DNA of 64,000 nt from Raillietiella orientalis (Eukaryota). Under the pieces are notes generated by a model, which worked only from the letters and a program-made list of their open reading frames with translations, made no database searches and had not been told where the DNA came from. Below are positions 3,981-64,000 of this stretch, in pieces. A program made the translations under genes and the position numbers. The stretch spans positions 310,001 to 374,000 of the forward strand of contig JAYWIR010000033.1 in assembly GCA_036172245.1 (NCBI GenBank), given 5' to 3'. The stretch's first letter is position 1. Each line of letters begins with the position of its first letter.

Positions 3981-6423
3981 CGTCGCTGATGCGTGAGACG
4001 GGAGATGTTCCCGCTTCTTTCCGCTCAGTAAAGGTGCGGTTCCTGCCAAAAGGAGTGGATTTGCGCCATCTCAGCAACTGGCGTCCGATCACCTTGGTGA
4101 ATTCGGACTCAAGTTGTTCTTGAAGCTAAGGTTCGCGTGGCTGGGGAGAATCGCGGAGTTCTTGGTAAGACGGAAGCAGACGTATGTTGTTCCGGGGCGG
4201 TCCATGGACGCAAATCTCTTCTTCGCGCGAAGATGTTTCGAGTTGCAGCAGCGCGTGGCGCAGCAGAGCCAGGCAGCCGAAGGCGCCGCTGCCAAGGGCA
4301 AGCGGCGGTGCTCGAGGCACGATGGAATGCGAGGTGCCTTAGTGGTCGCCGTCGATCTCTTCAAAGCGTTCGACAGCGTGAACCTGGACCTCCTTCTGGA
4401 GCTTCTGTGACGCCTAGGCCTCTTGACACCCCTCATCGCCTATTTCGCTCCTGCCGACACCACGCGTTATGCTGTATCTTTTTCAGAGGGCGCTACGTGT
4501 ACGGCGTTCCCATACGGCGGGGTATCAGGCAGGGAGACAACTTAAGACTCCTGCTCTTCAGCATCTTCTTTGAGTTGTTAATAAGGGCGTACACGCTGAC
4601 GCTGGCCAAACTGCATAGCTCTTGTCCAGGAACGCTGTCCCTGGCGGCCTATGCTGACGATCTGCTTCTCTTTTTACATATGACCACCCTGGCGTCCAGT
4701 CTGAAGGATTTTTTTGAGCTGATTCTCCGGGGAGCGGGCATGAGCGTCAACAGGATGAAATCAACCGTTGTACCGGTTGGCTATACGTGGGAGCGGCAGT
4801 CCGACTGGATGCGCCTGGGAATCCGCACGGAAAGGTGCTTTAAGTACCTTCGGGTTCCCTTGGACGCCTCCTGTCCAGAAGAAGCGTGGTAGCACTGCCT
4901 TCACAAGGCCGATACTGCTCAGGTCCCGTTCCAAGGTGGCAGGTTCCTCCTGTCGAAACGGGCCTTCGTGTGGAACATTTTCGTGGTCCTCCTACTCTGT
5001 CCATTCTTTTTTGTTTATCCGCCTTCCTTCTCGGCTAGGCGTCGAAGGTTACGCCTGTAGCGAAAAGCCTTGTTGGGACTGTCAAAGTCCAGGATTCGCC
5101 TCAACGACTTGGCGGCTTCTCGGCGGGATGCAGGATTGGGCATTCCGACGCTGGAGCGGATGGGACTGCTGGAGCAGTTGAGCATGCTGGCACTTTGCAG
5201 CCAGCTATGGACTCTCCCTGGTGTGCTCCAGCGCGTCTTCTGCTGCGGCGCTCCACAGGCGGCGAAGGACTGCGTTCGTTGCAACTGCGCACGGAGCGCA
5301 TCCAGAGAGGATTCGGCTTGCCTCTGAAGGTGCTCTCCTCGCTTCTGGAAAAGCATGCATGGATATCCTGCCGGCCGACGATATTCAACGCCTGGAGGCA
5401 GGGAGCCTTATCGTCCTGGGCTGCGGAACAGGATGTGTCCCGTTTGGAACTCCGTTGCATGAACCTTGCCCCATACTGTCCAGTGGGTGAGGTGTTGGAA
5501 GACCAGGACCAGTGGACACGCCTAGCCTCTATGCTCCTCGCCGAAGCACTGTCTGCATTGATGGTGCGAGACGACAGTGACCTTCCGGTAAGGTGGGTGT
5601 TTGCCTGCAAAATCGCAGGCGAAATCCGACTGTTGGGCGGCTGGAGCACTTGCAAGATGGTAGACGCTGCCACATTTCGCCTCCTTGCCAATGGACTTCT
5701 CCGGTTAAGTAAGCTCCTCGGGGTGCCCACCAATGAACTTGTGGTCCCTTCTGCGTGCTTAGAAGCGAGTGTCCTCCCCTTTCGGTGGAAACAGGACGCT
5801 TCTCTGCTGGTGCATTGGGGTTTGTACTGCAACTAACGCGCGCACCTGGTTTCCTGGGGAATTGTGTCCCCGACCTGTGCTACATGCGAAGTGGTGGAAT
5901 CGTTTCCGCATTTGCTATTAAATGCGGTGCTTTCTAGAAACTGTGGCGAAGGCTGCCTTCAGCGCTTTTGCACCTTGGACACACTGCAATGGATTGGATG
6001 CGCCTCTTCTTCACTCGTAGCGGTCTTTCTCCGGGAGCAATCGTCGCAATCATCTGCTGCGTCCGCGCGAATGTCAGAACCCGCCACATATTGTAGGTGC
6101 GAGCGGTATAAGCATCGGTCCCCGACACTGCAGCCTCCATCCTGCAAATGGTTGCCAGGTGGTCAGACCTTGGAGCAGAAGTGAGGGCGGAGATTGCTGG
6201 CATTCACTGCCGGTTCTGAGAATAGAAACGGCTAGACTGAAGACCCCTATCCCATCTTTCCATTTTATTTATTTATTTATTGTCCTCTCCCTTCCGTTCC
6301 TAAGTTTCAGTTTACCCGGTCTGCGTGCCGGGAACCCTGCTCTCCATCTTTCGTTCCCCTTGCCTAGGAACAAAGTTCCCTGATTATTTTATTGATAGAA
6401 GTCCCGGCGCAACCGGGTAATAA
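3980..6423 (+). mobile_element. LINE subfamily X, copy 1: RT to 3' end, multiple stops and frameshifts
   Basis: LPKG..NWRP, QTYVVPGRS, AVDLFKAFDSVN, GIRQGD, AAYADDLL and CATCEVVESFPHLL motifs. 3' hairpin at 6401-6418. Confidence 0.9.
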
Positions 6424-6500
6424 ACGACGACGCTGCAATCTTTGATGATCGCGCTACCGTGCTCTTTCTTGTACTGGTATTCGAGTTTCTTGTATTAGCG
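6424..6500 (-). mobile_element. Short remnant of subfamily Y ORF1, tail-to-tail with X
   Basis: Minus strand reads KKLEYQYKKEHGSAIIKDCSVVV, matching KKVAYQQKKKEQGSAIIKECGVIV in ORF 62538..63542. Confidence 0.75.
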
Positions 6501-6504
6501 GCCC

Positions 6505-7930
6505 ACCTCCTTCCATCCCAGTTTTTTCATTGCATGGGTCCTCGCTTTTTAGGAAGATGATCAGGAGGCTTCCTCCGTACATTCTTTGGGGCAATGGAGG
6601 GTCCCGTGGGCGACTTAAAGACTTGTGCGTTCCAAGCAAGGACGGTGGACTTGGCCTACTTGCGCTGAAGCGCATGGAACTGCCAGTTCTCTTCAGGACT
6701 CTCACCTTTTCGGCAGAACTGTGAGACACTTCGTGGTGCTTTTCATCATGCCTTCTGACCCAGAGCCTCTGTATTCGGCTTACTCTCAGCGTTTCTGTCA
6801 ATGCGCGACCGCTTACAAACGCGTTGCCTCTTTGACAGCCTAGCATTGCATTTGTAGTTCGGGAGAACGCTTGGATCTCGTGACTACCCAGTAACGACTC
6901 TGGATGTCTACACGAGTTGGTCTCCACGTGGGAAAAGATCGACGTTTTGGCAGGCATAATAAACACTTGCTTGAATAGACACGCCCGCTGAACGCTGCAT
7001 GAGATCGTGTAGTGCCACAATAAGCTTTTTAGGGTTCTCATTACCCTCTTTGCCCCAGTGCTGCCCTTCCTTGAGAACTCCAGGAACAGCAGCGAGAAGG
7101 GGAAATAAGAAGTGTTTTGCTCCATGGACGTCAAGACACAAGTGAGAAAGGCGTGGACATCTCGGCAGATGAGACAGCGAGTGTAACGCCCAACGGAATT
7201 TTATGCTAGAACGAGCTACTCGGACTATCTCCGGTGGAGATGAAGTGTCCCTTGGCATACTGGAACAGTGGTTCCCTCTTCTTGAAATGGTAGGAGGTGG
7301 CGTTGCTTGGTTTATATTGAGATTTACACTTCAAAGCTCGCCTCTCGCACTGCACACGTGGGGCTGTGGATCCATCTTACGACCTGTGTGGTGAAAAAGG
7401 AATATTTTCCCACCTCCTTGTGGACTGCATCGCCTTCCGTTTGCTTTGAGTTTGTCATTCGACGATCCTGAACATTGCCGGAGGCAGCCCATGGACATCT
7501 TTACGCGCCTGTTCACGAGTGCCGACATTCCTCCAGCCGCGTTTGTGGCAGTGCTATGCTGTATTTGCTGAATCGTGTCGACCTGGCACGCATCCAGGGG
7601 AAGAGGCCGAAATGGCAAGGTTGCTATCCATCGGTCACGCATCTTTGTGCAGAACATTTCCAGGTAACCCAACTTCGGTGCTAGCAGAACGCAGCTTGCT
7701 AGGATCCTAAAAAGAAACAAGGGGACCCCTCGACGCGCACTGTGATTTCTTTCCCGCCCTCCGATACCCAAAACGTATCTGCCCTCTCCACGTTTGAACT
7801 ATTTGTTTCTTTTTGTTTCCTTCTTCCTAGCCCCTCGCGACGGAAGGAACTCGCCGGTCGAACACCAGCAAGCAGCAATTTTGGCGTGATGAACTCAAGG
7901 GCTCACCACGCGAAAATTAACTGTATATTT
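6505..7930 (+). mobile_element. Old LINE ORF2 C-terminal fragment
   Basis: ILWGNGGSRGRLKDLCVPSKDGGLGLLALKR (6530..6724) and degenerate HLLVDC at ~7410. Similar to 10060-10350. Confidence 0.7.
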
Positions 7931-16780: not shown

Positions 16781-16799
16781 TTCAAGATAAACTCCGGCG

Positions 16800-17128
16800 C
16801 GTGATGTGTCTCAGGAATTCGCGATGTTCCTTCGCACCTGAGAGTCGTTTTCAGACCCCCGGCAGACGTCACTCTTCGGATGGCGGTCCCTTGTCACGCA
16901 GGCAAATCTCGAGAAGAGGCTAGAAATGGTCTGACAGCTTTGTCTCAATTTTCCCTCGTTTGCCGACCCGTGAACAGAGGTCAACGTTGAGGAAGACGTG
17001 ATCGACGCTGTGGTCTATTCCCTCTGCGCCTTCGAAGAAGTTGCGCGCGCATGGCGGTGCACAACTCGTTCTTCGTGTACTCCTCGGTTTTTGGTTCCTT
17101 TGAGAGCAGGATGAGATTAAGGATTATC
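16800..17128 (+). mobile_element. Probable LINE ORF1 remnant
   Basis: VNVEEDVIDAVVYSLCAFEEVARAWR resembles IEPKISDRDVVSVLAKFGKVHALWR of 58722..59087. Confidence 0.4.
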
Positions 17129-19323
17129 ACCCGGTCACGTCTGGACGTTTATTTTTAATAAACCGGTAGGCAACAATGTACCCAACCAACAAACCGACAG
17201 CAAACAGAGAGAAATTACCGGCACGCAGGCCTGGTAAACAAACCGCTCGCAACACAGGAGGAGTAAAGGAATAACAACACAAAAATACAAAAACTGGAGG
17301 GAAGGGTAATGAGTCTGTGGTGAGGCTCCGTACTCACGGGGATTCAAACGAGAAACACCTGGAATGTTACGAAGCCTATGAGGACGCAGGTGGAAAAAGA
17401 AAATACAAAAATGAGTTCATTGAGGGTAGGGCAATGATCACGGGTTGGCCGCTGCTGAGCGTGTGCAAACTGGCGGTGTATTTCGGAGAGATCCCTTGTT
17501 GACTCCTCTGTCAAATAAGGCCATCAGGCAGCTACTTCCAGATAGGAGCATGCTTTGCCGATTACTTCTCGGTGTTGCCCGTTGATTACTAACGCCTGGC
17601 GGACTGAAACTATCGCGCGTATGCAAGCGATGGTTGCAATCCTTGCGCTTAGGGACAGCCCGCTCGGCGTGAAGAATCGTCGCAGCAAGTCTCTTGCGGT
17701 TTCCACGGGATGCATTAGTGCTGTTACCAGCCTACGCCACGGTCCTTGTAGGACACCGCTGTCCAGAAGTAGGTGCAATATCGACTCCGTCGACCCGCAC
17801 CGAAAGCAGTTGTCAGATGGATGTCCCCCTGAGTCTCGATGCCAACGCTCGTTACACTGAAAACCCCAGTGAACGAAAAGCAGCACGGCTTGTTTCCAAG
17901 CAAGGGAATGCAGCGAACTGTCAACACTGTGAAGGGACTACAAGTTCTACGGGGATGACACCAAGTTCTTCTGCCCACCGGAGGAGTCCCTTTGCAGTAG
18001 AACAAGAAATGGCGGCGTCCGCCAACTCACTCGTCTTCCATGCGCCAAGGAGTTTCGTTATTTTTGCTATCGTGCACGTTACCTCCCACCTCGCCGGTTG
18101 AAAACTGTCGTTTCTTACCCTGAGGGCAGACAGCAATGCGGCGAGAGACTTGGCAGCCAGGGTAGAAAACTGCACCTGGTCCTGCAGTACATCTTCAAAA
18201 GATCGCAAAAGAGGATCGCGCAGGGAGCGAAAATCTTCAGGGCGGATTCCTTGGAACACCGCCCAGGATTCGACAGACTCCTGCCGCCAAGATTCGAAGT
18301 TCATTGGGCGGCATAAGATCCACGGACGGGCTTCCAGAAGTGTGGTCAACTGCCGCAATGGAAACTTAAAACCTCGCTTCCTGTATTAGGTGTTCGGCAA
18401 AAGCAAGAGCAGTCCTCTGCTGCCGGCGCATCTCTCCAGAAGAAAGTGTGCAGGCACACACAAAAGGGATGTCCATAGCTGAGCACACAATGCCAGCACC
18501 CGGAACTGCACCTTTAGTTTGATTCGCTCCAAAGTCAGGATGCCCAAACTAGCATCCCGACGTGGAGTTGCCAAATTTTTCAGGAGGATCCTGGATCTCT
18601 TTGGTCCCTAGAGGGCGTTTCTGAGCTAAAGTTTAGCCCGCTCTTTCGCCGCTTAAGGGAATTTCAAAACAATGAACAGGGAACGCAGGAGGGGAGCCAC
18701 AAATGTATTCCAAATAGCTGCCCGTTCATGCAAGGGAAAGTTGCCATCAAGGAACGGGCTAGCGGACAACTCTGCTTTTCGAAGACAGTCCGTCGACGTT
18801 TCGACAGCGCCGATAGCGCATAACGGAACAACCAGGTACTTAAATTTCCGACATGTGTGATTCCCCAGTCGGATCCAATCGGACTACCCTCCCACGACAC
18901 ACCCACAGGAACGACCACGCTTTTTTCTCTGTTGACGTTCACGCCCACTCCCCGACGAATCAGGTCGAAGAAATCTTCGACACTGTACGCTGGGATGGAC
19001 ATGGGGAGCAGAAGAAGCAGGTTATCAGCGTAGGCGGCCACGGCAAGCGTTCCCGGGCAGGAGCTTGGCAATTCAGATAGCGTCAGCCTGTATGCTCTCA
19101 GCACCAATTCAAAGACGACGCTAAAGAGTAACGGTGTTAGGCTATCACCTTGCCGAATGCCCCTACGCAACGAGATACCGTACACGCGGCAGACGCTGGA
19201 AGTAATATAGGTTAGCGCGTGGCTCCAGCCAGCGCGCAAGTAAATAAGGAGATGCGCCGGAAATCCAAGGCATTCCAAAAGCTCCAAAAGAAGCCACTGG
19301 TTTACGCAGTGAAACGTCTTGCG
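17129..19323 (-). mobile_element. LINE Z, 3' half (RT from the KAFD motif to the 3' end)
   Basis: ORF 18664..19287 has GIRQGDSLTPLLF and AAYADNLL; CFRCGSTESILHLLLD zinc finger. Terminal motif at 17153-17129. Confidence 0.85.
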
Positions 19324-19417
19324 TGCTCCAGGGTGGACGTGTTTTCTCGGTGCTTTTTTTGCCAGGAAGTCCCCCCTAGTGCTAGCGTCGTGTGGTTTGG
19401 TGGTCGATCAGGCAGCG

Positions 19418-20551
19418 ATGCCTGACGCGACCACCAGGGATGGCCAGGGGGCAGCGGAAACGCCGCCTTCAGAGGCGATGGAGAGCAAGGGGGCGGCGGC
19501 AACTTCGCTTCCAGAGGCGATGGAGGTAGGGGCATCCTCCCCCACAGAATCGGTCTTCGCTGCAGCGCGGGCGTGGAGTGCCGTTGTGTTGGCGCCATCG
19601 CCTGCAGCCGCGGCGGAATTGTCGGCCTATGTAAAGAAGGGGTACAACCCCTCATTGTTCTACAAGGTAGGCAATCTCTATTCTTTAGAGAGCGCGCGCG
19701 CCTTTTCGAAGGGCATGCGCGCTCTCGATGTGAAAGAGGAGGAGCTCAGCGCTATGACCATCCGCAGCGGGAGTCAGTACGTTAAGGTCATCTGCAAACA
19801 TGCAAAGCTTGCCCAACGACTGCTTAAAACTTCCGTTGTGATGGAGACGCGTAGGCTACTCCTTACGGCAGACCGCAGCATGGTGGTCCACCTGTTAGGC
19901 GTAACCGCGCGGATGCGCAAGGAACAGGTTTGCGCCGCGTTGGAGGAATACGGAACGGTCCAGATGCAGTGGACGAAAGTTAGTACCTTCGAGGACTACA
20001 CAAGGCTGCAACACGGCCTCACGGCTGCGCGCGTGACCGTTCGGGAGGGCTGCACTCTCCCCCACAAACTGGTGGTCGAAGGCGAAACCGTCGACCTCTG
20101 GTATGTGGGGAAGCCGAAATCCTGTGGCTTCTGCAATACGTCGGGCCACCTCAAAAAGAGGTGTCCCAATGTGCAGTGCCAAGTATGCGGAACCATGAGA
20201 CACACGAGGGAGGTGTGCCCTAAAGCAGCAGTGCGGGTGGTTTCCAAGAGAAACCTTAAAAAACATGCCCGGCTTCTGCAGAAAAACCTGGCAGCGAAAG
20301 CTGCCGCGAAGGCTGTGCCACCCGCGCCCAAGGCCCAGGCCGCACCCGAGACCCCGGCGAACAACGCCGAACAAGTCAAGGGAACTAGGCGGAAGCCTGG
20401 GTGGCAGGTGGCTACGGCCAAAAAATCAAAGAAGGAGAGGAGGATTGAGAAAAAGCTCGCGTACCGCCAGAAAAATGAGCAGGCAAGCGAGCAAATTAAA
20501 GAATGCAGCGTTCTCGTTTATTACCCGGTTGCGACGGGACGTTTATTATAA
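19418..20551 (+). CDS. LINE ORF1 gag-like nucleic-acid-binding protein, open but truncated by the X insertion
   Basis: ATG MPDATT at 19418. Two knuckles CGFCNTSGHLKKRC and CQVCGTMRHTREVC, then a basic tail. Confidence 0.85.
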   Translation: MPDATTRDGQGAAETPPSEAMESKGAAATSLPEAMEVGASSPTESVFAAARAWSAVVLAPSPAAAAELSAYVKKGYNPSLFYKVGNLYSLESARAFSKGMRALDVKEEELSAMTIRSGSQYVKVICKHAKLAQRLLKTSVVMETRRLLLTADRSMVVHLLGVTARMRKEQVCAALEEYGTVQMQWTKVSTFEDYTRLQHGLTAARVTVREGCTLPHKLVVEGETVDLWYVGKPKSCGFCNTSGHLKKRCPNVQCQVCGTMRHTREVCPKAAVRVVSKRNLKKHARLLQKNLAAKAAAKAVPPAPKAQAAPETPANNAEQVKGTRRKPGWQVATAKKSKKERRIEKKLAYRQKNEQASEQIKECSVLVYYPVATGRLL

Positions 20552-30264: not shown

Positions 30265-30696
30265 ATAAAACTTTAACGTTCGCCTGAAACCAGATGGGCA
30301 GAATCATGAGCAAGACCTGGTCAACAAGATGTGCATGGCGGTGCACACCTGTAATTTGTTTGCCAGTAACCTTGAATGGAGGACAGGTCCGCACACGTTT
30401 ACCTTGACGAGCAGCTGTGATCTCGCTTGGGCAGGCGCGGCAAGTTACCTTGCGAGCTGTCTGACCATCGCCCAATCGTGCTCCAGGTTCATCCCCGCGA
30501 CACGGGTCATCCCTCGTCAGCGTGGCGTCTTCCTGTGGACCGGCTAGAGATCATGGACGCGAAGGAACTTCTCCGCTTGTTCATACAGAGCTTCTGAATA
30601 CGGACATTCCGGGTCTGGGACCGCTTCGAGAGGGCAATCCAGGAATTCTGGGACCAGTTCCCTGTGCTCCGCCTACCAGAGGGTTTTTGGATTTCC
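30265..30696 (+). mobile_element. LINE endonuclease C-terminal half and linker fragment
   Basis: FNVRL, VNKMCMAVHTCNLF and QFPVLRLPEGF; similar to 59670-60104. Confidence 0.7.
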
Positions 30697-32120: not shown

Positions 32121-32212
32121 ACCCTGTAATTCTTCAGATTACAGGGTCTAGAACAAAATACTACAAGCCAACAGCGAACACAGCAACATTCTAAGACCTC
32201 GAGCATGATAGT

Positions 32213-47846: not shown

Positions 47847-50800
47847 ACTCGGTCAAGCCGGGGCGTTTATTCCATATAACATAAACAAAAAACCATTATA
47901 TAAAATAAACCAGTTGAGAACCAAACTCCCAACCGACGACTGAAATAGAATGAAGAGAATATTGCTGGCACCGAGGCCAGAGTAACAGTTTTGCGAACGG
48001 TCTGAGGGGGCGGGGAACACAAAGAAACCAAAATAAAATAAAAACAATGAATAAGGAGGACGGGATAAGGGTCTTTGGGATCGCTCTGGAAGACACGGGG
48101 ATTAAAGCATACGCACCGGAAATTTCACCAAGCAAACGGGGACGGGGTATGAGTGGGCGAGAGGTCGCAGAGGTCACTGGATTACGCCGTTCTCAAAGGT
48201 GTGTAAACCGGCGATGTATGCCGGTGATGTCCTCATTCACCTTGTCACGAAGATGAGACCACCTTGAAGCCTTCTCCATGAATTGAGCTGCAAGCAGGTG
48301 AGCCTGCCTTCGCTGCAATGACAACTCCAGGGCGTAGCGGGCCTTCACGATGGCGCGAACGCAACACATGGTTGCGACAATCGCGTTAACCGAAAGCCCA
48401 TTCCTGCTGAAGAAGCGTTGCAGCACATCAATGGCAGTGCCTGCTTGTGGCAAGATGGCCCAAGTGAGCCTTCGCCACAGTTCCCGGAGGTCACCGCAGT
48501 CCAGTAAAAGGTGCGGAAAAGTCTCGATCTCTCCGCACCTTAAACAGTTTACCAAAGCAGCTTTCCCGGAAACGATGCTTTGCTGCCTATTACAGTCCAA
48601 TGCACAATGTAAAAAGAGCAGCACATCTTGTTCTTACTTTAGGGGACACGCAGAGCTGTCCAAACAAACGGAATGAACCACTATCTCTTCGGGGGGCACA
48701 CTTATATGTTCGCTCCACCGGAGGAGGCTCTTCGCCCGATTCCGAGGAGTGGCGGCTCGCACCAGCTCCTTTGTCGTCCAGCTGCCGAGGAGCTTACTGA
48801 CTTTCGCTATTTTGCAGGAGAACTCCCATTCCGCCGGTAGGAAACCGTCGTTGCTTGCCCAGAGGGCAAACAGCGCTGCGGCGAGTGGTGTGGCGGCCAA
48901 ACGATCCGACATATTCTTGTCCTTCATGACTTCGTGCATTAGATGACTGAGGAGAAGTCTCAGGCATCGAAGATCTTCCAAACGCGTTCCTTCGGAAGCT
49001 GCTTACGATGAAAAAGATTCCTGACGCAATGCATTAATGTTCATGGGATCGCAAAAGATCCAGGTTTGGGCTTCCAGCAGTGAGGATAGCAGCCTCGGCG
49101 GGGAGCCAAACCCTATTCTGGTGTGCCGAAAGTGGGGTAGCAACGAAAGCAGTCCCTCGCTTCCCGTGCAGCGCCTCAATATAAGGCGTGCGGGTAAGCA
49201 CCTCGACGTACAGCACAGCTTGGCACGGAACCGCAGCATTGGAAACTGCACATGCACTTCGATGCTGTTTGAGTCGAGGAAGCTCAAGCCTAAATCCTGA
49301 CGCGGTGCCATTAATTCTTTAAGTGTAACACGGGATCTTGCAGCGCCCAACAAAGTTTTGCGTAGAAGGCTCTGCGCGCAGACTTTGACTTCCTGGGCGG
49401 GCGGACAAACAAAAAACAGGGGATGTTAGAGGGGAGCAATTAAGGTGTTCCAGATGCAGGCCCGTTCCGACAAGACTGACTCGCTTCCTGAAAACGGGCC
49501 AACTGCCCGCTCTGCCTACCGAAGGCAGTCCGACCACGCTTCTGAGATGCAAAAGTCGCCCAACGGCACGGCAAGGTACCTGAGGTACCTGCCCGTGGGC
49601 ATCCCCAGGCGGATCAATTCGGAGTGCCCCTCCCACGTCGCACTCACCGGAACCACCATACTGTTACTCCTGTTAACGCTCACGCCACCACCGCGACGAA
49701 TCAACTCAAAGAAGTCTTCAAGCGATGTCGCCGGGGTGGTCATGGGCAACAGGAGAAGCAGGTCGTCGGCATAGGCTGCCACGGCCGGCGTACCTGGACA
49801 GGAGCTCGGCAGGTTGGCTAGCGTCAGCCTGTAATCCTCCAGCACCAATTCAAAATAGATGCTGAAGAGCAGCGGGCTTAAGCTATCACCCTGCCTGATT
49901 CCTCGTCGTACCGGCACGCCTTACATGCGACAGGCACTGAAAACAATGGATGTAATCGCGTGGCGCCAGCAGGAGCGCAAGTACGCCAACAGGGATGCCG
50001 GAAGACCCAGACGTTCCAAAACCTCAAGAAGAAGCTTTTGGTTCACGCAATCGGAAGCTTTGTGCAAATCGAATGCAACCGCCAAGGCTCACGGTGTCTC
50101 CCTTTGCGTTCCGAGCCTCCGTCGGTGAGAGATCGAAGGCGTCGCTTCCGCATGACGATCCACAGCCACACGATGCTGCAATTGCAGCCATGTCCGGATG
50201 AAAAAGAGATTCGCTTCCATGGAACGCCCAGGAACAGCGTACGTCTGCTTCGGACTTACCAAGGATTACGCGAGCCTACCCATCCACGCCACTAAAAGTT
50301 TCCACAACAACTTGAAGTCCGAATTGACTAATGTGATCGGACGCCAGCTGTTCAGATGGCGCACATCTCCGCCTTTTGGCAGAAGACGCACCTTCGCTGA
50401 GCCAAACGAGACGGGACATCGCCCGAGTCTCGCATCAGCGAAGAGAGTTACAGCACCAGGGAGATGAGCTCCGACGCAAAACACTGCAAGAATTTCGCGG
50501 GAGCCCATCCTCGCCTGGCGCCTTTCGTTTCTTGATCCCCGAGATGGCCGAGGAAATTTCCTCTGCCGTGAAGGGCTCATCAAGACGCGCGCGTTCCTCC
50601 TCGTCTACAACAGGTGCATCAATCGGCAGAAGCAGCCGGGAGAGGCTGCGTTCCAGCGGTGCATCGGCATACAGAGAAGAGTAATATCGCCTGAATATCC
50701 GTCGCACGTTGGCTGGAGCCGAGCATTCTCGGTCCTGGTCGTCGAGCATAACTGCCGCCCCTGTCTGCCAGACCTGGCGCTTGGCCTTGGCCTTGTACTC

Positions 50801-52520
50801 AGATAATCGACCAGCGTCCGTGCACCTGGAAAAGGAGCGCTCCTGCAGAAAATCTCTGCTGTTGGCTACGCCTTCTCCGAAGCCGCGCGGATGCTGGTGA
50901 AGGGAAACCGGCAGCAGAACTCGTTGATCGATCTTTTCAGATCTTTCCAGTCCTCGAACTCACTAATACCAAAGCTGAGAAGGTACTGGCGAATATGCGC
51001 AGCCGCCTCCGGGTGGCTCAGCCAGTCTGCCGGCATCCTCCAAAAACAGTTTGGAGGCCCCTTGCGTGGCGGGAGCAACTCGAACTCGAGCCTGTTGTGG
51101 TCTGTAAGCACGGACGGCACGGGACTTCTCCGATTAACTCGAGAGAGCAAGTGTTCATCAAGGTATACGTGGTCCGGCGTTGCTGCCATGACAGAGTGGC
51201 TAGCGAACAAGTTCCACGCGTGCACGGACATGCACATCTCTTCCGCTAGCAACTTTTCCCTTTTGTGGGATCTATTCTCGGAAATCAGGTGGACGTCAAA
51301 GTACCTAGCAATGAGATGGGCCACAGAAGGGTGAGATTGAGTGAGCCACTGGCTTTGAAGGGTACCGAAGAACTCAATCCTTTCGGCCCATCGTCCAGCA
51401 CCGCTCGGCGCGTACACGTTGGTTACGACAAGGTCGATCGAGTAGGACCACTTGAGTACAAGCTGTCCCACTCGGCCTTCTGTGTCGAAACGAACGCTGC
51501 GCACCGCTCATGCCAAAGTTCCTCGCACGAGGAAAGCGACGCCGCACGTCCGTGCAACGCCGCACCTATAAAGTAGCGTTTCGTCTGCGCGCCGTTCGAT
51601 TTCGGCAGCCTTCTCTCCGGAGATGCTGTGAATCTCCTGCAGGAGCGTCAAGTCGAAGGCGGGCAGAGCGTCAGTCACTAGTCGCCTCTTCTCGTGTTGG
51701 AGCCCGTTGAAGTTTCAAGACGTTACTTCAACACGACGAGAAGACGCGATTGCCCTCATCACTGCAGGAAAAGCGAGGCTGTGGTGCTCGCCTCACCCGG
51801 CGAGCGAGCAGTAAGCAGCACGACGGGCTGAAGGGCGCGCTCGCCACCGGCCTCAACTGTGCTGAACGTAATCGGATGCTCCTCCCCGGGTGCAGAACAT
51901 GTGGGTTGCGGGGTGAGCGCTCGTTGTTCCGCGGCGAGTGTGTTACGCTTCAGGGCTTCAGCTTTGCGGGCGCTCGCTCCCGCGCAAGTAATGCGTGGAT
52001 CAGCGGTGCTATCAAACTACTTTGCGGAGTCTGATGCTCGCACGATTGACGTGCTCTTGCATCTGTCCGATTGCACCGGAATGGTCTTCTCGGCGGTCAC
52101 AGAAGCGGACTTGCACGCGTTGAAGGCGCTGGCTTTTTCCTGGGAAGAAGCACTTGCCGCGAGTGTTTTCGCATTCGCGCGACTGCTTTTTCCTTTAAAA
52201 GAGCTAAAAGGTGGACGTTGGCAAGCCTTTTTTATAGATTTTTCCATCTTTTTCTCCACAACCTTCCATTCGCCTTCGCGATTCTCGGAGGCTCTCTCGA
52301 AAGTAGTTGCGGAAACCTCCGGGATTTTCGCTGCGTTCTCTGGAGTCGTTGATTTCGCTACGCCTTCAAAAGGCGGCAACGAAGTCACCTTCTTGACAGT
52401 CGAGAGATTGCTCGTCTCCTTCCGACTCGGTGATTGTGATCGTGTGAGCCCGGACAAGGAAAGTTTTCCAGACGAAAATACGAAAGAAGCGCCGAGGAGA
52501 TCACGGCGGAAGACCTGCTG
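47847..52520 (-). mobile_element. LINE W, 3' part: ORF1 end plus nearly complete but disrupted ORF2 and 3' end
   Basis: TGATG at 51761-51757; NVYAPSG, TDHN, WRPITLVNSDFK, GIRQGDSLSP, AAYADD and CLRCGEIETFPHLLLDC motifs. Terminal motif 47871-47847. Confidence 0.9.
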
Positions 52521-52529
52521 TCGTCCCGT

Positions 52530-55500
52530 GCAGCAAGACCAGCTGCCAGGATGCAAGCACCTGGAGGACGAGTAGAAAGACCGTCGTCCCTCATGGAAGC
52601 CATGGAAGTAACGTGGGGCAACGGCGAGGCGGTGGAAGGCATGCCGAGGATCGCGCCCGCGGAGGGCATTGCTGCGCCGGCGGCGGCGATGCCAAGGGTC
52701 GTGCCCGGGGCGACGAGGGCGGTGCTCGTGCCCGCGGCGGCGACGCCGAGGATCGTGCCCGAGGCGGGGAAGGTCGTGCCTGAGGCTGCGATGCCGAGGG
52801 TGCTGCCCGCTGCAGCAACGGTGGCGACGTCGAGGGTTGCGCTCACATCGTTGGCGTCCCAGGCTGGACCTGCGGGCGTTTACGCGGTGCAGGGCGAGAC
52901 CCCATCTTGTTCGACTGCGGCGGCGCAGCCCTTTTCCTATGCGTCGGTGGCGGCTGGAAAAGCGAGTGTCCACCCACCAAGAGAATTCGGGAAGTCGCTA
53001 TGCGGAAAAGACCAAAGCGTGGATCGGCCGATCGTGTAGTTAGGGCCGAATGTGAAGCCCATCATTTTCAAGACTGGGCTGATCAAGTTCAATAATATCA
53101 GGGAGGTGTATCTGTCCCTCGATAAAACGGACATGAATTTTGATCGCATACAGGCGATCATACCAGCAAACAACGGGTTCACAGTCTTCACAGACTGTGA
53201 AACTATTAGAGAGCGATTGATCCAGAAGGGGATCAATATACAAAAGAGGATAATTTGTATTATTGGCGAGATGCCATACACAACCGTCTACCTGAACGGC
53301 GTCTCCATCATCACACCTCAACTAACGGTGTGGAACATTTTGGAACAGTATGAGGAAGTTCTGGACAATGTATTCCAGAACTACTCTGGAAATATTTTTT
53401 CTGGCGAAATGATCGCCAAAATGAAGTTGAAAGACGGAGCTGTGATCCCTGGATTAGCTGTTCTGGAAGAACAATCTCAGGGAGTGAACGTGCGTCACCG
53501 GAAACAACCGGTATTCTGCACCGGATGCAAGCAGTTCGGCCACCAGGCCGGCGCTTGCCCAACGTGTGGTTGTTTCCCCTGCGGCAAAATAGGATATCAA
53601 GTCCGAAACTGCCCGCAGCCGGAGGTGTGCTCCTTCTGCAAGAAACACGGACATGCCAAATAAAGCTGTCCAGAGTTTGCAGACTGCAGAAGGATTCGAG
53701 GTCTCTCTCCCGTGAGAAAGAGAAACACCAAGGAGGCGAAACAGCCTCATAATGCAGGAAGACCGAAGAAGGTGAAAGAAGCCCTCCCGGTATAGAAAGA
53801 CGGCTTCATACAGGTAGGGAAGAAAAAAAAAAGGAGCATGCTCGTCAAGGAGCAAGAAACCTTTCTTATCCTGGAAGGTGAAGAGAAAGAAGGCGAGAAG
53901 ATGGAGGTTGCGCAGGAAGGCGTGGAAGAAGAAATAGTCGAAGCCACTACGGTGTCGCAGAAGGCCTTGCAATCTACGGGGGAGCTGGCATCATTGGCTA
54001 ATAAAGTCCTAGAGGTGCAGTGCGGTCCCCAGCAAGAAAAAATTTTGCAGAAGATCTGCAATGCACATGAGAAGGTCAACCAGTTTGTGGAAGTCACCTA
54101 TCGCGAGAAGCTAGACGAAGAGCTTCTCGACGTAAAGACGAACTTCTGCGCCTAGTTCGAGATAGAGACGGTATCTCGAAAATTGATCGCGCAGGCTTAA
54201 CACTCGACGGAGGAGGCGGAAATAACCGACCTTACAGGAACCGAGAGTGCCGCCAGCAGCGAGAAGCCAGCTGCTTCTTCATTATCTGGAAGAGCACGCT
54301 CTCTCAGATAGAAGAAGCTTGGGAAGGCCAAGAAATAGGACTTCCCCTTTTATGGACTCTTCCCTATCGACCGAGAGGAGGCTGAACATCGCCTCCTTTA
54401 ATGTAAACGGTGTGGTCGACCAGAAGAAAAGAAAAAGTATTGTGCAGACCATCGCACACCAAGACATAGTGTGCCTGCAGGAGACCCACAAGATGGGTCT
54501 CGAGATTAGTAAGCAAATGGAACGGCGATTCAACGGGCAGATGTTCGTCATCGAGAAAAAAAGGAACTCGCAATATGTGAAGGTCCTAATCAAGCACAAC
54601 TTGGCATTCACCATTCTGGAAGTGTTCTGTCCCTAAACCGAACGAATCATTGGCGTGCGACTCGCCTTTTCCGCTACTGTTCACCTCATCCTGGTGAACG
54701 TGTGCGGGCCGCACAGGCTAAAACATCGTTGTGCGTAGGCGCTGCATGCATCACTCCGTGAAAAGGTTGACCCCAAGGACGTCGTGATTCTTGCTGTCGA
54801 TCTCAACATATTGGATGAGATCATACACCCCGAAGACACCAGAGGAAGGACGGCGTATCAGCGGCTATCCGAAGAGTTAGGACTGGTGTGGCGAACGGCA
54901 AGTCACAAGTTGAACGATCACGTCCTGCACAGCACCGAACCTGGGAATCGCAACCAGGGTTTTCGAGACATTATGACCACGGTATGCGATCAATCCCTTA
55001 AGCGGTTTTCCCTAACAACGAAGAATCCTCGGCGGAGGCAAGGCACCAAGGCGGCGCTCATCAGCATGCCCGCCTGGTTCGAAACCCATCCCGGACATCA
55101 GGCTGTCCTGGAGACGATTCTGAAGGCAACAACATTCCGAAGAGTTGCCGAGTGGACAGCCTGAAACACAGGATACACCTGTTTGCAAACATGCAGTTCA
55201 GGAATAGGCGCTTCAGGCAGGAGGCGTACCGTGAGCTGAACATCCAAGATCGCTCACTCTCAAAGCACTTCGATCAGTACGAGAGTCGGTACGTCTTCAA
55301 GAACATAAAAGGGAAAGTAGGCGTGCTGGAGAAGAGAAACCTGGCAACAGATATCTTCTGCATCTAGTACGACGGTCAAAAGCGACAGTCGTCGGAGGAC
55401 ATCGTGGATGCCTTTCACAGGCATTACACGAAACACTTCAGGAGACAACAACTCTGTCGCTCTAGTCAACAGGTTTTTCTGAGCTACCTCCAGAAGAGGA

Positions 55501-57985: not shown

Positions 57986-59369
57986 CCCCTTTTGGGACTT
58001 GGGGAAAACTGCCGAGTCGGCGGTGAGGCGAGTGCATGCAGCGTGCTTTTGCTCGTCTCGACGATGCTTTTTACGGCATTGGTAGCCTTTGCAGAGAGGC
58101 GTGCGCTGCAGTGGGGCTGTCCGGAACTCGGAAAGGACAACGGAACGGAGCAAGAAGTCTTCGCACTGTTGCGATCTTCCTGTTTTGCTACATTCCTCTT
58201 CAGGCTCTTACGGAGATTTCCTGGTACCTGACTCGAAGAGGTGCCTGCGAGTTCGGCAGCGAGGAAGGGCACGGCACGCGTCAAACCCTTGCGCATCTTC
58301 TTAATTGGTTTCCCGCCGTGACTTTCCACTTTCGGGTCTTTTTGGGAGGGGATGCTTTCTTTTCATCCGCGGAACGCTCGTTGTTTTTTCCGAGTTTTCG
58401 CGGAGGACTTTTTTTATTTGCCGCTGCGGCTTTTCGTGCAGTGGTCTCTTGAACCCGACGAATTTCCGCTGCGGATCTTTTTCTTGCAATCACCGGGCAC
58501 TTTTTGATTTCGTGCCCGGAATCTTTGCAATAGCTGCATCTTGGAGAGGGGCACCCTTTGATTCGGTGCCCATCCTTGCCGCACTGCTCGCACGCGCGAG
58601 TCTAGCCTATGAACCACAGGTGAACGACCGTGCCGTTCACCTGCAGCTGCTCAGGCACAACACGCCTGTTTGCGACGGTGATCCGCGCGGTAGCTTGTCC
58701 GATGTGGACAGAGGAGAAATCCTACAAAGCGTTCTGATTTCTCCACAGGGCGTGCACTTTGCCGAACTTCGCCAGCACGCTGACAACATCGCGGTCGGAG
58801 ATTTTCGGTTCGATGTCGCACAATTGAACGACAAAAGAGTCGTCCATCGCGGTAGGTAGAACTTCCTTGCAATTGATGGTGAACGGCGTACGGAGAAGGC
58901 GCTGCACAAGTGCTGAGTCCTTGTACGAAATCTTCGTATATTCCATCCTGCCAGCAGGCATTATGGCAAGGTGTTGCTCCTCGCGAACGCCGATCCGGAC
59001 GAGCTCATCATTGAGCTCACGACCGATTCTTCCGCTAAGGGGCCCACTGACCTTATAACGGAGTGCAGGCATGTATCCTGATGACACTTTTGCCTGGAAC
59101 TGCGCATCGCAGGGTCCTGGTCTTCAAGAGGTAACGGCGGCGTAACTCCTCAGCGGGGGCGAGGAAACCATTACGGAGGATGCGGCTACTTCAAGTGCAG
59201 CTTATGTGCATCCAGTGGCTTGCTTCTCCACACTATCCTGTGTACTGGCCATGTTGCACTATGCTACTTGAAAAATTGCACAGAAACACACAAGTGCGAG
59301 CGAAAACGCAGGCACAAAGTTGCTTGATCTTTGGCGCGGATAGACGCGGAAACACGTCTGCACTGTACG
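57985..59369 (-). mobile_element. LINE W, 5' part (5' UTR and ORF1)
   Basis: AGACGTGTTT at 59359-59350; GYMPALRYKV...LVQRLLRTP...AMDDSFVV (58722..59087). Confidence 0.8.
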
Positions 59370-60104
59370 AGCGCGGGAGATCAAACGGATCGCGGGAGGC
59401 GGCTGCTGTGGCGCTGCGGCAAAATCAAGCGGTATCGCCTTTCTGCTCCGGCCAGCCATCGAGGCCGCAATAAAGGACGTACGGTTTGATGATGCCGGTC
59501 GCGTCGGTCAGCTGACTCGAAGCTGGTCCGACTCTATCGTCCTGGCCGTCAGCAACCTGTTCGCTCCTAGACGTAACGACACGTTGAGGGCGAAGGCAAG
59601 AAGAGAATTCTACCTTGCTTTCGGACGCGATTGGCTGATCAATGCAGGTGTTCGCAAAGCGCACCTGATCGCAGGTGACTTGAACCTGCGCCTGCTTCTA
59701 TGTGCTCCGTATACACTGAACGACTGCGTCAACGAGTTGTGCGCAGAAATGCACACGTGCAACTTGTTGGCTGGAGATGCTGACATGGAACGCAGCATTG
59801 ATCATGTGTTCCTTGATTAGCACCTTAGCTTACCTTAGCTTACCGGGGCAAGTTACCTTCCGAACTGTCAAACCATGGCCGGATCTTGTTCGAAGTGCAT
59901 CCGCGCGACAAACGCCCTCCCTCGTCAGCGTGGCGCCTGCGATTCGACTGGATGAAGCTCCCTGACGCAGCGGAACATCTCCTGCAATCCATACGGAGCT
60001 TCAGAATTCGGACGCTTCAGCACTGGGACTGTTTCAAGCGGTCGGTTCAGGAGTTCGGCGAACAGTTCCCTATCCATGGTCTACCTGAGTGATTTAGGGT
60101 TGTC
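59370..60104 (+). mobile_element. Continuation of the endonuclease begun at 47678
   Basis: Resumes at EIKRIAG; VRFDDAGRVGQL, HLIAGDLNL, IDHVFLD and QFPIHGLPE motifs. Confidence 0.8.
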
Positions 60105-62207
60105 ACCAGAGTACGCCCTGGGCGCTTTTTAATTGAACTCTACATCTGCGGTACAAGGCCCCTCTGTCGGCCATATACACAGGACCTGCCGGGACGCCGG
60201 GACGCAGCCCGACGTGGCTCTCCTCGGCAGTGGAAGGGATGGGGGGGAAAACAAAAAGAAAAATAAAAAGTAATGAAAACAAAAAGAAGTTGGAGGGCTG
60301 GGAAGGGATCACTCTGCACTGGGAAAAGGGCCCATCCTTCGAAGGAAGCCCTTCAAGTCCGTTCGAATTGTACCCAGCTGGGGCCATCCAGAAGCTCTCG
60401 TCAGGAAGCGAACATCATACGGAATGACGTCCCTCTCGTTCTGGTTCACATCTTCGTCGCGTGTATCACTCCACGCCGCCACGATGCCACGGATGCAGCA
60501 TAATGCTGCCACGGCTGCGGCTGGGTCCAGGGCGTCCCGCACGAAGAGGAGGCGGAAAATGTCTCTGGGCGCGCTGCCTGAAGGGAGACCTAGGGTCATC
60601 CCAAACCGTTTCCATAGGGGTCGAAGGGCAGCACAGTCAACAATAAGGTGTGGGAGCGATTGCCTTTCCCCACACCGGGCACACTCAGGATTTACTCTCC
60701 TCCGGGTCCAGTGGAAGCAGCGCGCGTTGCAGGGCAGGCCCCAATGCAACGTCAGCAGCGCCGACTCTTGCCACTTGAGGGGGAGAATCCTGGCTTCAAT
60801 TAAAACCGGGGGCCACTTCAAGTCATCCGTCGGGATGCCGAGCAGCTCGTTCCATCTTGCAAGTCCTTGAGAGAGGGCACTCGGGGTCGTGGCATCCGCC
60901 AGTTCTCCCTTGGTCCAACCGTTTAACAATTTCTCTCGTCCTCAGATCCGGCAGGTGACTTGCCACTTCGGCGTCCGGCCGCTGGTAAGAGCCCTATACA
61001 GAAAGGGCAGCGCCGTAGCTAAAGGGGTGGTCTCCGCTTACGTGCTTATGGCGGGACACAGCAAAGTGGACCGCAGAGTGCAGCAGGCGTTACTGCCAAA
61101 TCGTAGGCGGTTCCAGTTTTCCTATCTGGTGTTGTTTAACTCTGCCCTCGTTTCAACGGTTTCCTCCAACCAGGCGGAGAAGTTGACGGGGCTGCATACT
61201 ATCCAACCTTTTTCTCTCACCAGGGCTTCCATGCGTCCGAGGAGGAGGCCGCATCTTCTAAACTACCGGCCGCGGCACAGAAGATAGGATGCAAGCCCTT
61301 GCGTACCGGTGACACGGCTGGCAAGTAAGCGGGCCGGAACGCATCAAGGGGTGTTCCACAACTTCGCTGCGATGGCCAAAGTGCGCCATCGCAGCTGGAT
61401 CTCCAATCGCTCCAGCGTCAGGAGGTAGAGACCGCCGTCCGGACGAAGAGCGCTTATGTCTTTCAAGTTCACTCCGAGCCTTCCGCTGCCCCAAAGGGCA
61501 ATACGGAGCAGGTCCTTGGTCTGTTTTTTCGACAGGGTAGGGACTGGGCAAACAAAAAGTAGGGGGCGTAGGATGAAGGCCGCGAATGCGTTTCAAACCG
61601 GGGCTCGTTCCGGCAGAAGGAACTTGCCTTCCAAAAATGGGCCGATCGCCAGCTCTACCTCTTGGAGATGATCTGAACAGGCTTCTGCTAAGCAGAAGTC
61701 CCCAGACGGGACACACAGGTACTTAAGGCAACTGGCCGTGGATATCCCAAAGCAGATCCAGTAAGGCCGTCCGACAAACGTCGCACCAACTGCTACCATC
61801 GAAGACTTCGCCTTGTTAACACGCAGTCCAGTCCCTTGGCTTAGCAGATCGAAGAAATCCTCGACTGCGGCTGCCGCGGTTGACATGGGCAACATAAGCA
61901 GAAGATCATCGGCGTATGCCGCAAGAGCAGGCGTGCCGGGGCACGAGCTAGGCAAGGCAGCAAAAGTCATCCTGTACGCTCTCAGCACCAACTCAAAGTA
62001 GGTGCCAAAGAGCAGGGCACGAATGCTATCGCCCTGCCGTATTCCCCACACCACCGGCACGCCGTACGCTGTGAATCCACTGTAATAAATATTAATTAGA
62101 GCGCGGCGCCAACATGAGCGCAGGTAGGAGATAAGGGGGGGTAGGAAGCACATGTGACCCAGGAGCCCCAGCAGGAGATCCTGATTTACGCAGTCGAAAG
62201 CCTTGTG
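60105..62207 (-). mobile_element. LINE V, copy 2 (RT from KAFD to 3' end)
   Basis: HKAFDCVNQ, GIRQGDS, AAYADDLL and CARCGERQSLPHLIVDC motifs. Confidence 0.9.
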
Positions 62208-63403
62208 TGCTCCAGGGTGGACGTGTTTTCTCGGTGCTCCTCGTGCCAGGAAGTCTCCCCCAGTGCAAGCGTCGTGTGGTTCGCTGGTCGATCAGGCAGC
62301 GATGCCTGACGCGACCACCAGGGATAACCAAGGGGCAGCGGACACGCGCCCCCAGAGGCGATGGAGAGCCATGGGGCGGCGGCAACGTCACCCCCGGAGG
62401 CGATAAAGGTGGGGGGCATCCGCCCCACAGAATCGGTCCCCGCTACAGCGCGGGCATAAAGCGCCGTTGTGTCGGCGCCAACGCCTGCAGCCGCGGCGGA
62501 ATTCTCGGCCTAAAAGGAGGAGGGGTACAACCCCTCATTGTTCTACAAGGTAGGCAATTTTTATTCTTTAGAGAGCGCGCGCGCCTTCTCGAAGGGCATG
62601 CGCACTCTCGATGTGAAAGAGGAGGAGCTCAGCGCTATGACCACCCGCAGCGGGATTCAGTACGTTGAGGTCATCTGCAAACATGCAGAGCTAGTCCAAC
62701 GACTGCTTAAAACCCCCGTTGTGATGGGGACGCGCAGGCTCCTACCCACTACGGCGGACCGCAGCATAATGGTCCACCAGTTAGGCGTAACCGCGCGAAT
62801 GCGCAAAGAACATGTTCGCGCTGCTTTGAAACAGTTCGGAACGGTCCACGCGCAGTGGACGAAAGTTAGTCCCTTCGAGGACTACACAAGGCTGCAACAC
62901 GGCCTCACGGCTGCGCGCGTGACCGTTCGGGAGGGCTGCACTCTTCCCCACAAACTGGTGGTCGAAGGCGAAACCGTCGACCTCTGGTATGTGGGGAAGC
63001 CGAAATACTGTGGCTTCTGCAAGACGTCGGGCCACCTCAAAAAGAGGTGTCTTAATGTGCAGTGCCAAGTATGCGGCACAATGGGCCACACGAGGGAGGT
63101 GTGCCCAAAAGCAGCAGTGCGGGTGTTTTCCAAGAGAAACCTTAAAAAACGCTCCCGGCTTCTGCAGAAAAGGCTGGCGGCGAAAGATGCCGCTAAGGCT
63201 GTGCCACCCGCGCCCAAGATTCAGGCCGCATTCAAGACCCCGGCGACCAACGCCGAAAAAGTTGAGGGAGCCGGCCAGGAGACTGGGTGCCAAGTCGCAA
63301 CGGCCAAAAACTCAAAAAAGAGGAGGATGGAAAAGAAAGTCGCCTACCAACAGAAGAAGAAAGAGCAGGGTAGCGCGATAATTAAAGAGTGCGGCGTCAT
63401 TGT
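62208..63403 (+). mobile_element. LINE Y, copy 2 (5' end and ORF1, frameshifted N-terminus)
   Basis: Close match to 19324-20517; knuckles CGFCKTSGHLKKRC and CQVCGTMGHTREVC. Confidence 0.9.
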
Positions 63404-64000
63404 TTATTACCCGGTTGCGCCGAAACGTTCATTAAAATATCAACTGAGAACTGTGTTCCCAGGCAAGGGGAACAGAAAATGGGGAGTAGATTTCCCGGAA
63501 CGCAGTCCGGACACACTGAGAGTTCGGAACGGGAGGGGGTAGGACAATAAATAAATAAACTGGGTGGGGGGGTGGGGACAGGGGTATATCGTCTAATTGT
63601 TCCTATTCTCAGAACCGGCGGTGAATGCCGCCGATCTCCATCCTCACTTCTGCTCCAAGATGTGGCCACCCGGCAGCCATTTGCAGGTTGCAGGCTGCGG
63701 TGTCGGGGACCGATGTTAAGACTGCTCGCATATGCAATACGTTGCGGGCCCTGACAATGGCGCGGACGCAGCAGATGATTGCGACGACCGCTCCAAGAGA
63801 AAGTCCGACACGCGTGTAGAAGCGGCTCATCCAATCCAGTGCGGTGTGTCCAGGGTGCAGGAGCGCTGAAGACAGCCGCTGCCACAGCTCCTGGAGGGCA
63901 CCGCACCAAAACAGCAAATGCGGAAGCGATTCCACCGCTCCGCATTTGGCACAGTTCGGGGACGCTACTCCCCCGGAAATCAGGTGCGCCCGCTGGTTGC
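63404..64000 (-). mobile_element. LINE X, copy 3 (3' end; continues beyond the window)
   Basis: Close match to 20518-21112; IGGIHRRF*; terminal motif 63433-63409. Confidence 0.9.

Follow-up and report, generated by a model that had tools for sequence, protein, structure and literature searches.

Insertions of LINEs at recurrent coding positions of other LINEs in a 64-kb window of the Raillietiella orientalis genome

A number of systems are known in which long interspersed nuclear elements (LINEs) accumulate in one another, and the available text of the papers concerned describes Zepp clustering as nested insertion targeting existing copies, with arrays of 3' ends (PMC8226300), one nested Zepp cluster per chromosome in Coccomyxa (PMC3446292) and clusters of nested copies for both Zepp and ZeppL (PMC9940879). 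The available part of a further source includes transposons among the targets of site-specific elements of the non-LTR (long terminal repeat) type (PMC4640811). No account of LINE-into-LINE insertion at fixed coding motifs was found in the literature, the original target rule of Zepp lying outside that survey. The stretch analysed here, referred to throughout as the window, comprises 64,000 nucleotides (nt) from Raillietiella orientalis (contig JAYWIR010000033.1, positions 310,001 to 374,000) and contains many copies of LINEs with two open reading frames (ORFs), of which ORF1 carries CCHC knuckles and ORF2 an apurinic/apyrimidinic-type endonuclease (APE), a reverse transcriptase (RT) and a zinc-binding C-terminal domain. 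It is argued below, with a probability of roughly 70%, that the window is accounted for by site-directed insertion of LINEs into other LINEs. In what follows the individual copies are designated by letters.

The KAFD motif of the RT is interrupted twice by an element termed Y, in the hosts Z and V2. At both loci the host RT codons, which run antisense to the insert, stop immediately before Y (at 19323 and 62207), and Y starts at the next nucleotide (19324 and 62208) with an identical 11-nt leader followed by GGACGTG. Comparison of the two loci yielded identities of 64 - 68% for the host (over 200 - 400 nt), 88% for Y and 93% for the element X that lies within Y, and the step in identity from host to Y falls exactly at 19323|19324 and 62207|62208; the two hosts share 41% amino-acid identity. 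The 5' part of the first of these insertions (Y copy 2; 19324..20522, plus strand) consists of the leader, GGACGTG at 19335 and an open ORF1 of 412 codons (ORF 19313-20548), and its counterpart in V2 (Y copy 3; 62208..63408, plus strand) was delimited by the sequence, the identity step and an ORF1 tblastn match. Both arms of Z flank the Y unit. The right arm (23352..25619, minus strand) includes the end of ORF1, the APE domain, the linker and the RT as far as ...VDLRKKFD, where it ends, and was recognised by a Pfam match (Exo_endo_phos, E 3.4e-9, 24337-25083) and by a tblastn match to RT residues 1-201 at 23353-23937. The left arm (17129..19323, minus strand) begins RKTFHCVN (RKTFHCVNQ in host sense) and continues the RT from KAFD to the C-terminal domain, the 3' untranslated region (UTR) and the 3' box, having its own 3' end at 17129 (tblastn and sequence). 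The unit at 19324-23351 is surrounded by a target duplication of 16 nt (19308-19323 vs 23352-23367) of which 12/16 positions are identical (binomial probability 3.8e-5). Y integrated at the one nucleotide of KAFD on two separate occasions, producing the same 5' junction each time.

The second position lies in the linker of ORF2, where the host sequence ...LPE plus 15 nt ends at 30696 and 60104 and the 3' end of an element termed V, in reverse complement, begins at 30697 and 60105. V1 (30697..32190, minus strand) is a 5'-truncated LINE running from the C-terminal domain to the 3' box, identified by blastn, tblastn and a 3'-end profile, and lies in the host H30, of which the end of the APE domain and the linker remain (30368..30696, plus strand; tblastn). 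V2 (60105..62207, minus strand; tblastn and 3'-end profile), which extends from KAFD to the 3' box and is itself the host of Y copy 3, lies in H60 (59372..60104, plus strand; tblastn), which is preserved from ...AREIK in the APE domain to the same linker nucleotide and whose left edge abuts the 5' end of a further element, K. Since V1 and V2, and likewise their hosts, are all approximately 70% alike, identity alone cannot decide whether the two insertions were independent. The ratio of non-synonymous to synonymous substitution rates (omega) was obtained with a protein-guided pipeline, and 12 neutral simulations per pair (kappa 2.3) were passed through the same pipeline, giving for the linker pairs means of 0.74 - 0.78 and minima of 0.61 - 0.62. 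For V1/V2 omega was 0.39 over 329 codons and for H30/H60 it was 0.33 over 106 codons, in each case under all 12 simulations, which indicates that inserts and hosts diverged as living lineages and thus that the linker insertions were independent. V1 and V2 also have unlike 5' extents and unlike neighbours.

Two further elements end at or near the same linker nucleotide. P0 (14124..16780, plus strand; tblastn, profile E 0.03), comprising the end of the linker, the RT, the C-terminal domain and the 3' box, has its 3' end in the linker of a 5'-truncated host, Q (16781..17109, minus strand; tblastn), after the C-terminal part of the APE domain and ...APEFILK, and this is the same codon as for V1 and V2 if Q is without one codon. 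The 3' end of Z at 17129 adjoins a remnant of the linker target (17110..17128, plus strand; sequence), the last 16 nt of which match the V2 flank at 12/16 positions (binomial tail 3.8e-5), and 5'-truncated Q follows within approximately 19 nt. There are thus at least three to four independent hits at the linker site. A LINE 3' fragment termed T0 (45218..45940, plus strand; blastn) has a flank similar to that of P0 and is 76% like the 3' part of P0, the likeness extending 22 nt past the end of P0 (blastn 16054-16802 vs 45219-45962), so that T0 is possibly a duplicate of P0 and its flank. Ahead of it and oriented alike lies N, a LINE resembling Z, whose 5' end is at 43647 and which stops at 45217, in the linker 15 - 17 codons before the GFGE site; the join at 45217/45218 is another 5' junction unlike its own 3' flank.

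A fourth position is found in the APE domain. U (47847..52997, minus strand; tblastn, 3'-end profile E 8e-4) is a near full-length but degraded LINE whose 3' end interrupts T, in antisense, past the ...AWEIS of its APE domain, T itself (45957..47846, plus strand; tblastn) having a full-length 5' end with GGACGTG at 45968, ORF1 and the APE domain to that point. K (58494..59371, minus strand) has a full-length 5' end (AGACGTG from 59359, with a leader of about 12 nt) and an ORF1 (tblastn 58494-59198), and this 5' end abuts H60, antisense, at ...AREIK, which fits the nick used by U given a 16-nt duplication and a 12-nt leader. Two hits at the APE site are therefore suggested, that of K being deduced solely from its 5' junction, which is compatible with a duplicated target of 16 nt.

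The preliminary description of this DNA had reported three junction types recurring at the same nucleotides, namely Y at KAFD, V in the linker and X in the ORF1 tail of Y, and all three are present in the sequence where it placed them; its statement that inserts lie antisense to their hosts holds for all mapped insertions. It had also proposed that LINE copies repeatedly and independently entered fixed nucleotides in diverged LINE coding sequence, and this is borne out for the KAFD and linker sites. To its list can be added P0 and Z at the linker site and the fourth recurrent site, that in the APE domain (U and K). The mapped independent events are then four at the linker (V1, V2, P0 and Z), two at KAFD, two in the APE domain and one, possibly two, in the ORF1 tail, with S6 and X4 assigned to none of these sites. 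By our own estimate the probability that two independent hits fall within +/-2 nt of each other and in the same orientation in a LINE of approximately 5.5 kb is about 5/11000, and among the 36 pairs formed by nine mapped independent events eight coincident pairs were seen, compared with about 0.02 expected.

An important consideration is how far such coincidences might arise without directed insertion, and the alternative that survives best is one in which LINEs are attracted to the region of the cluster, perhaps by a feature such as chromatin, and their nicking follows a short, loosely defined motif with few good matches inside LINEs. The window is nearly all LINE, which makes regional targeting plausible, Zepp clusters are described as one per chromosome in the available text of PMC3446292, and the 12 listed flanks all open with a stretch rich in A, after which a C comes within 8 nt (AATAAAC, GAAAATC, GGAAATC, GATAATC, GAGAAATC and GTAAAC among them). 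However, a motif of about 5 nt would be frequent in every 5.5-kb LINE, yet four of the nine events fall at the linker nucleotide and two each at the KAFD and APE sites; furthermore, the 5' junctions of both Y copies are identical too, and intact copies of the sites are found in Z, P and U beside those that were hit. Regional attraction combined with a loose motif is consequently considered an unlikely explanation of the window as a whole.

It is also conceivable that each recurrent junction goes back to a single insertion, multiplied by segmental duplication or by the movement of composite units, with no site preference at all. The window does contain a 5-kb inverted duplicate (8901-14042 vs 41359-36411, 72 - 75% identity), the LINE part of which, the dead element S7, gave an omega of 0.97 in the same pipeline; this value is neutral and points either to real segmental duplication or to a composite built from dead DNA. 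The pair P0/T0 gave 0.86, and for X in Y duplication is probably the correct account. Against this, the jump in identity at the Y junction and the distance between the hosts Z and V2 are not what copying of a single insertion would give, the omega values of V1/V2 and H30/H60 lie under every neutral simulation and under that of the empirical duplicate, and V1 and V2 differ in extent and surroundings. On account of the identity step and the omega values, duplication is refuted at the KAFD and linker sites, and as a general explanation it is improbable. The 5-kb inverted duplicate itself, detected by blastn, consists of an internally deleted LINE, in which the APE domain is joined to the C-terminal domain, and a 4-kb AT-richer unit in which no Pfam match was found.

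The junction of X with the ORF1 tail of Y is a different case, and here independent targeting, which had been proposed for all three junction types and stands for KAFD (by the identity step) and the linker (by omega), does not hold. The junction itself is marked by GTTTATT-A-CCCGG (20516-20531 and 63402-63417, with the reverse complement at 6410-6425), and a 29-nt degenerate pattern for the host side of the junction, ending GTTTATTA, has three matches vs none in 100 shuffles. When the variable last 220 nt of Y are left out, copies 2 and 3 are 90.3% identical in Y (880/975) and 92.7% identical in X (547/590), giving z = 1.66, or z = 2.9 with the variable tail of Y included. In copy 1 only some 72 - 125 nt of the ORF1 tail are left, followed by another LINE fragment; the 72-nt host tail is 70% and 82% like those of copies 2 and 3, the corresponding figures for 500 nt of X being 79% and 80%. 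For X1/X2 omega was 0.72, within the neutral range of 0.70 - 1.26. As insert and host diverge about equally between copies and omega is neutral, the X-in-Y junction looks inherited by the standard that the preliminary description set for refuting its own proposal, and it is probably one old insertion that travelled inside a composite Y unit. The 5' extents of X1 (3978) and X2 (the equivalent of 4850) differ, which gives a second X-in-Y event a chance of near one in three.

The three copies of X are X1 (3978..6418, plus strand), which runs from the start of the RT (Pfam RVT_1 4101-4889; blastn, tblastn) to the 3' box and is flanked by the Y-like ORF1 tail remnant (6419..6545, minus strand; ORF1 tblastn, sequence), X2 (20523..22097, minus strand), a 5'-truncated copy antisense in Y with the C-terminal domain, 3'UTR and 3' box (blastn 4850-6491 vs 22094-20450, 81%; tblastn), and X3 (63409..64000, minus strand; blastn, 3'-end profile), the 3' end of a copy in Y copy 3 that runs off the window. 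Beyond X2 a Y-type 3' part (22098..23351, plus strand; tblastn, sequence), with C-terminal domain, 3'UTR and a 3' box ending CCGGGT at 23348 and followed by GAA, closes the unit. The whole unit bounded by the target duplication, 19324-23351, contains no sense-strand APE or RT by tblastn; its second copy is visible only to the end of the window at 64000. The pair of Y ORF1 sequences gave an omega of 0.46, whereas none of the 12 simulations fell under 0.69. The most likely interpretation is that Y5'-X-Y3' (about 4 kb) is a single non-autonomous element, composite and ORF1-only, which propagated as one piece and entered KAFD on two occasions.

Several other interpretations of this part of the window were considered and rejected. 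Carriage of Y sequence by X through 3' read-through was set aside because the 16-nt duplication encloses the whole of 19324-23351. The suggestion that the target of X is the ORF1 stop codon fails because T has an uninterrupted homologous site (47097-47125, ..SCCVIVER..) and its ORF1 continues for a further 27 codons, so that the 'ORF1 tail' site is internal to ORF1. X4 (2697..3980, minus strand; Pfam, tblastn), a C-terminal domain (zf-RVT) with a 3' box near-identical to those of X1 - 3 that lies head to head with X1, cannot be the 3' half of the LINE into which X1 inserted, since its box is X-like and its clade differs from that of the Y 3' part; nor was its flank accepted as a case of the ORF1-tail site, with only 8/16 matches. 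The 3' end of X4 is 29 nt from the GGACGTG of W (1583..2680, minus strand; ORF1 tblastn, sequence), which has a LINE 5' end (13-nt leader, GGACGTG from 2667) and ORF1. The ORF1 tail of W is succeeded, at 1572-1600 (minus strand, 5' end at 1582), by another LINE 5' end, AGACGTGTTTTT, oriented like W itself; in an alignment its position coincides to about 1 nt with that of the X target in Y, and its sense orientation does not conform to the antisense rule.

Template switching between LINE RNAs, at the level of RNA or cDNA and with insertion of the resulting chimeras instead of integration into DNA copies, could explain why several joins are without target duplication and have 5' ends head to head (X4|X1 and X2|Y3'), and why the 5' end at 1582 continues the orientation of W, but it is very improbable as an account of the junctions given that the arms of Z lie on both sides of the Y unit with 16 nt of target repeated, the signature of integration at the DNA level, and that target-primed synthesis yields antisense joins in which the 3' box at the host junction is intact. 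Integration into copies present as DNA is shown: one insertion has a duplication of 16 nt, and at two sites the nucleotide entered is fixed.

A number of observations weigh against site-directed insertion. The whole case comes from one 64-kb window with two to four events per site, the assignments of Z, T0 and K draw on 15 - 24 nt, and a target duplication was seen for one insertion only. P0 shares the linker nucleotide only with a one-codon gap in its host Q, and T0 may be a duplicate of P0 and not an independent insertion, as indicated by the P0/T0 value, which was taken over 73 codons. The 5' junctions of X1, X2, S6 and T0 do not match their own 3' flanks. The flanks of all sites open with a short A-rich..C, so that a loose nick motif could explain part of the preference. 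When omega was computed in the antisense frame as a control it was 0.67 for V1/V2 and 0.31 for Z/V2, and the latter renders the omega test uninformative for Z/V2, the most diverged pair. Finally, the sole related public sequencing run contains mostly relatives of less than 90% identity and is unusable for counting flanks, giving no support either way.

The ends of the elements are uniform. All of the 3' ends (12/12) have AATAAACG, about 16 nt, CCGGGT and then 3 - 7 A-rich nt, with no long poly(A). An nhmmer profile built from nine of them regained all nine and added those of U (47850-47876, E 8e-4) and P0 (16746-16776, E 0.03); that of S6 was found by eye. A strict hairpin scan recovered only one known 3' end, and the consensus fold of the 12 ends gave four weak pairs at -0.67 kcal/mol and no supported hairpin. 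Full-length 5' ends have a leader of 11 - 13 nt followed by (G/A)GACGTG, and GGACGTGYTTT with at most one mismatch occurs 10 times compared with a shuffle mean of 2.6, a count reached by none of 100 shuffles. Same-strand tandem pairs are separated by short spacers (T0-T 28 nt, X4-W 29 nt and Z-Q approximately 19 nt), lengths that could be made up of a leader and a duplicated target of 16 nt, as expected if an occupied site had been entered again. Near 3978 (X4|X1) and near 22097 (X2|Y3') two 5'-truncated LINEs are joined head to head with no target duplication, each partner retaining a true 3' end that faces outward. Twin priming was rejected as the origin of these joins: the true 3' end of either partner is preserved, and the two overlap in LINE coordinates. 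The breakpoints of X4 and of the Y 3' part are separated by approximately 33 nt in the C-terminal domain (..SLCGKLW.. vs ..CWCVPAR..), though these two belong to different clades.

The relationships among the elements were examined with a FastTree phylogeny of the C-terminal domain from 12 fragments in a query-anchored alignment, T0 and S6 being short. Z, U, X4, S1, X1 and X2 fall in one clade and V1, V2, the Y 3' part, P0, T0 and S6 in the other. The ORF1-tail site is used by X1 - 3 only and KAFD by Y only, whereas the linker is used by both clades, which indicates conserved targets held in common together with some subfamily preference. The multi-family targeting hierarchy proposed earlier is thus upheld as regards fixed shared targets and a degree of preference, but not as a clean or strict hierarchy.

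In the mechanism envisaged, new copies would enter older ones by target-primed reverse transcription, in antisense orientation, at positions fixed by conserved coding motifs: in the linker directly after ...LP(E/R)GFGE, within RK(A)FD of RT motif A, in the APE domain about 12 codons past LQEIH, and in the ORF1 tail. The APE endonuclease would read an extended target reaching beyond the short A-rich..C start common to the flanks, possibly assisted by pairing of the short RNA tail, and occupied sites may be re-used, leaving spacers of about 16 nt such as those of Z-Q, T0-T and X4-W. Sites beside motifs that the host cannot change would be expected to stay available across subfamilies that are 41 - 60% alike. 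A more speculative extension, which we regard as possible though rather doubtful, is that the LINE subfamilies form a guild of mutual hyperparasites in which the machinery of integration has become adapted to recognising extended stretches next to catalytic or otherwise unchangeable motifs (RT motif A, the APE domain after LQEIH and the GFGE linker), so that hosts could not escape by mutation and each antisense hit would kill a competitor; the process itself would then build LINE-only islands like the centromeres of some algae, with the ORF1-only chimera Y riding along. If site-directed insertion were confirmed genome-wide it would mean that LINEs can land specifically on conserved coding motifs of other LINEs, and would provide a sequence-level mechanism for the nucleation and growth of LINE-only clusters (Zepp-like islands, candidate centromeres), a natural example of parasite-on-parasite targeting and several new APE-type integration specificities with 16-nt duplications. 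It bears in addition on the origin and persistence of non-autonomous chimeric LINEs.

The composition of the window as a whole was surveyed in several ways. Its GC content alternates between blocks of 51 - 59% and two blocks of 40 - 47%. Stop-to-stop ORFs with 110 or more amino acids numbered 160; the 150 longest were compared with Pfam, and 11/150 matched RVT_1, Exo_endo_phos or zf-RVT (E <= 0.01), of which only four reached the Pfam cutoff; a twelfth ORF matched an unrelated family only. Matches to RVT_1 went down to E 9.6e-8. With eight protein pieces from the window as tblastn queries, LINE fragments were found on both strands over most of 1-32200 and 40500-64000. The closest solved structures (PDB) for the RT are human L1 ORF2p (E 2.3e-8) and R2 (E 1.8e-6), and for the APE domain L1 endonuclease variants and chimeras (E 2.1e-5), and with L1 ORF2p and the L1 endonuclease as best solved relatives the elements are APE-type LINEs. 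The cluster that fills the window consists almost entirely of copies of such elements. The ORF1 of Y has two CX2CX4HX4C motifs visible in the alignment, though its match to Pfam zf-CCHC_4 is weak (E 0.13), and by tblastn it has six more homologues in the window and one tail-only match. Searches of longer proteins returned one distant plant match only for the RT, and none of 8000 scored candidates was a homologue of Y ORF1. The block at 32200-40370, with 40 - 47% GC, lies between the LINE-rich parts; it has ORFs of up to 201 amino acids with no Pfam match, and the host H30 does not resume beyond the 5' end of V1.

In the related public DNA run 9% of sampled window words were present and 330 contigs were placed, 216 of them less than 90% alike, which identifies its source as a relative. 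Over 14000-33999 it holds many relatives of the window LINEs at 80 - 95% identity, and one 3755-nt contig aligns to the right arm of Z and stops 7 nt past 23354, beside the Y junction; the run from which this contig comes may derive from a related strain or species. A metagenome scan for the X 3' box returned 120 loci, none of which (0/120) had blastn or tblastn likeness to the window, and these were chance matches.

The comparison with known systems can now be drawn. Like the L1-type elements Zepp (Chlorella and Coccomyxa) and ZeppL (Chlamydomonas), which in the available descriptions form clusters of nested, mostly 5'-truncated copies that target existing copies, the LINEs of the window form a cluster of nested, 5'-truncated copies inserted in one another; this cluster is GC-richer than the neighbouring sequence. 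Unlike them it has several diverged subfamilies from two clades and four fixed coding positions, all entered antisense, and its 3' ends consist of a conserved box and 3 - 7 A-rich nt with no poly(A) tail, whereas Zepp carries a poly(A) tail at its 3' end. The APE-type LINEs of the Tx1 and R1 clades likewise use one nucleotide of a multicopy target and re-use the site with precise junctions, which in the window are seen at the 5' ends of the two Y copies; the likeness is one of target behaviour. Tx1L inserts in the transposon Tx1D and R1 in 28S ribosomal DNA (rDNA), but the targets in the window are coding motifs of LINEs of the same broad group and not RNA genes, microsatellites or a DNA transposon. 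The R2 and R1 arrays of rDNA also resemble the window in the re-insertion at an occupied site that its spacers suggest, and a short RNA tail may help in pairing with the target, as in the work on R1Bm read-through; they differ in that no host gene is involved here and the 'safe harbour' would be provided by other parasites. HAL1, an ORF1-only non-autonomous LINE derivative, offers a parallel to the Y unit, which keeps a selected ORF1 and LINE ends without an APE or RT of its own, but the Y unit carries an antisense LINE fragment in mid-element and has a fixed target. The system in the window is thus a variant on the theme of Zepp, Tx1 and the R elements, set apart from the described cases by the fixed coding-motif targets among LINEs.

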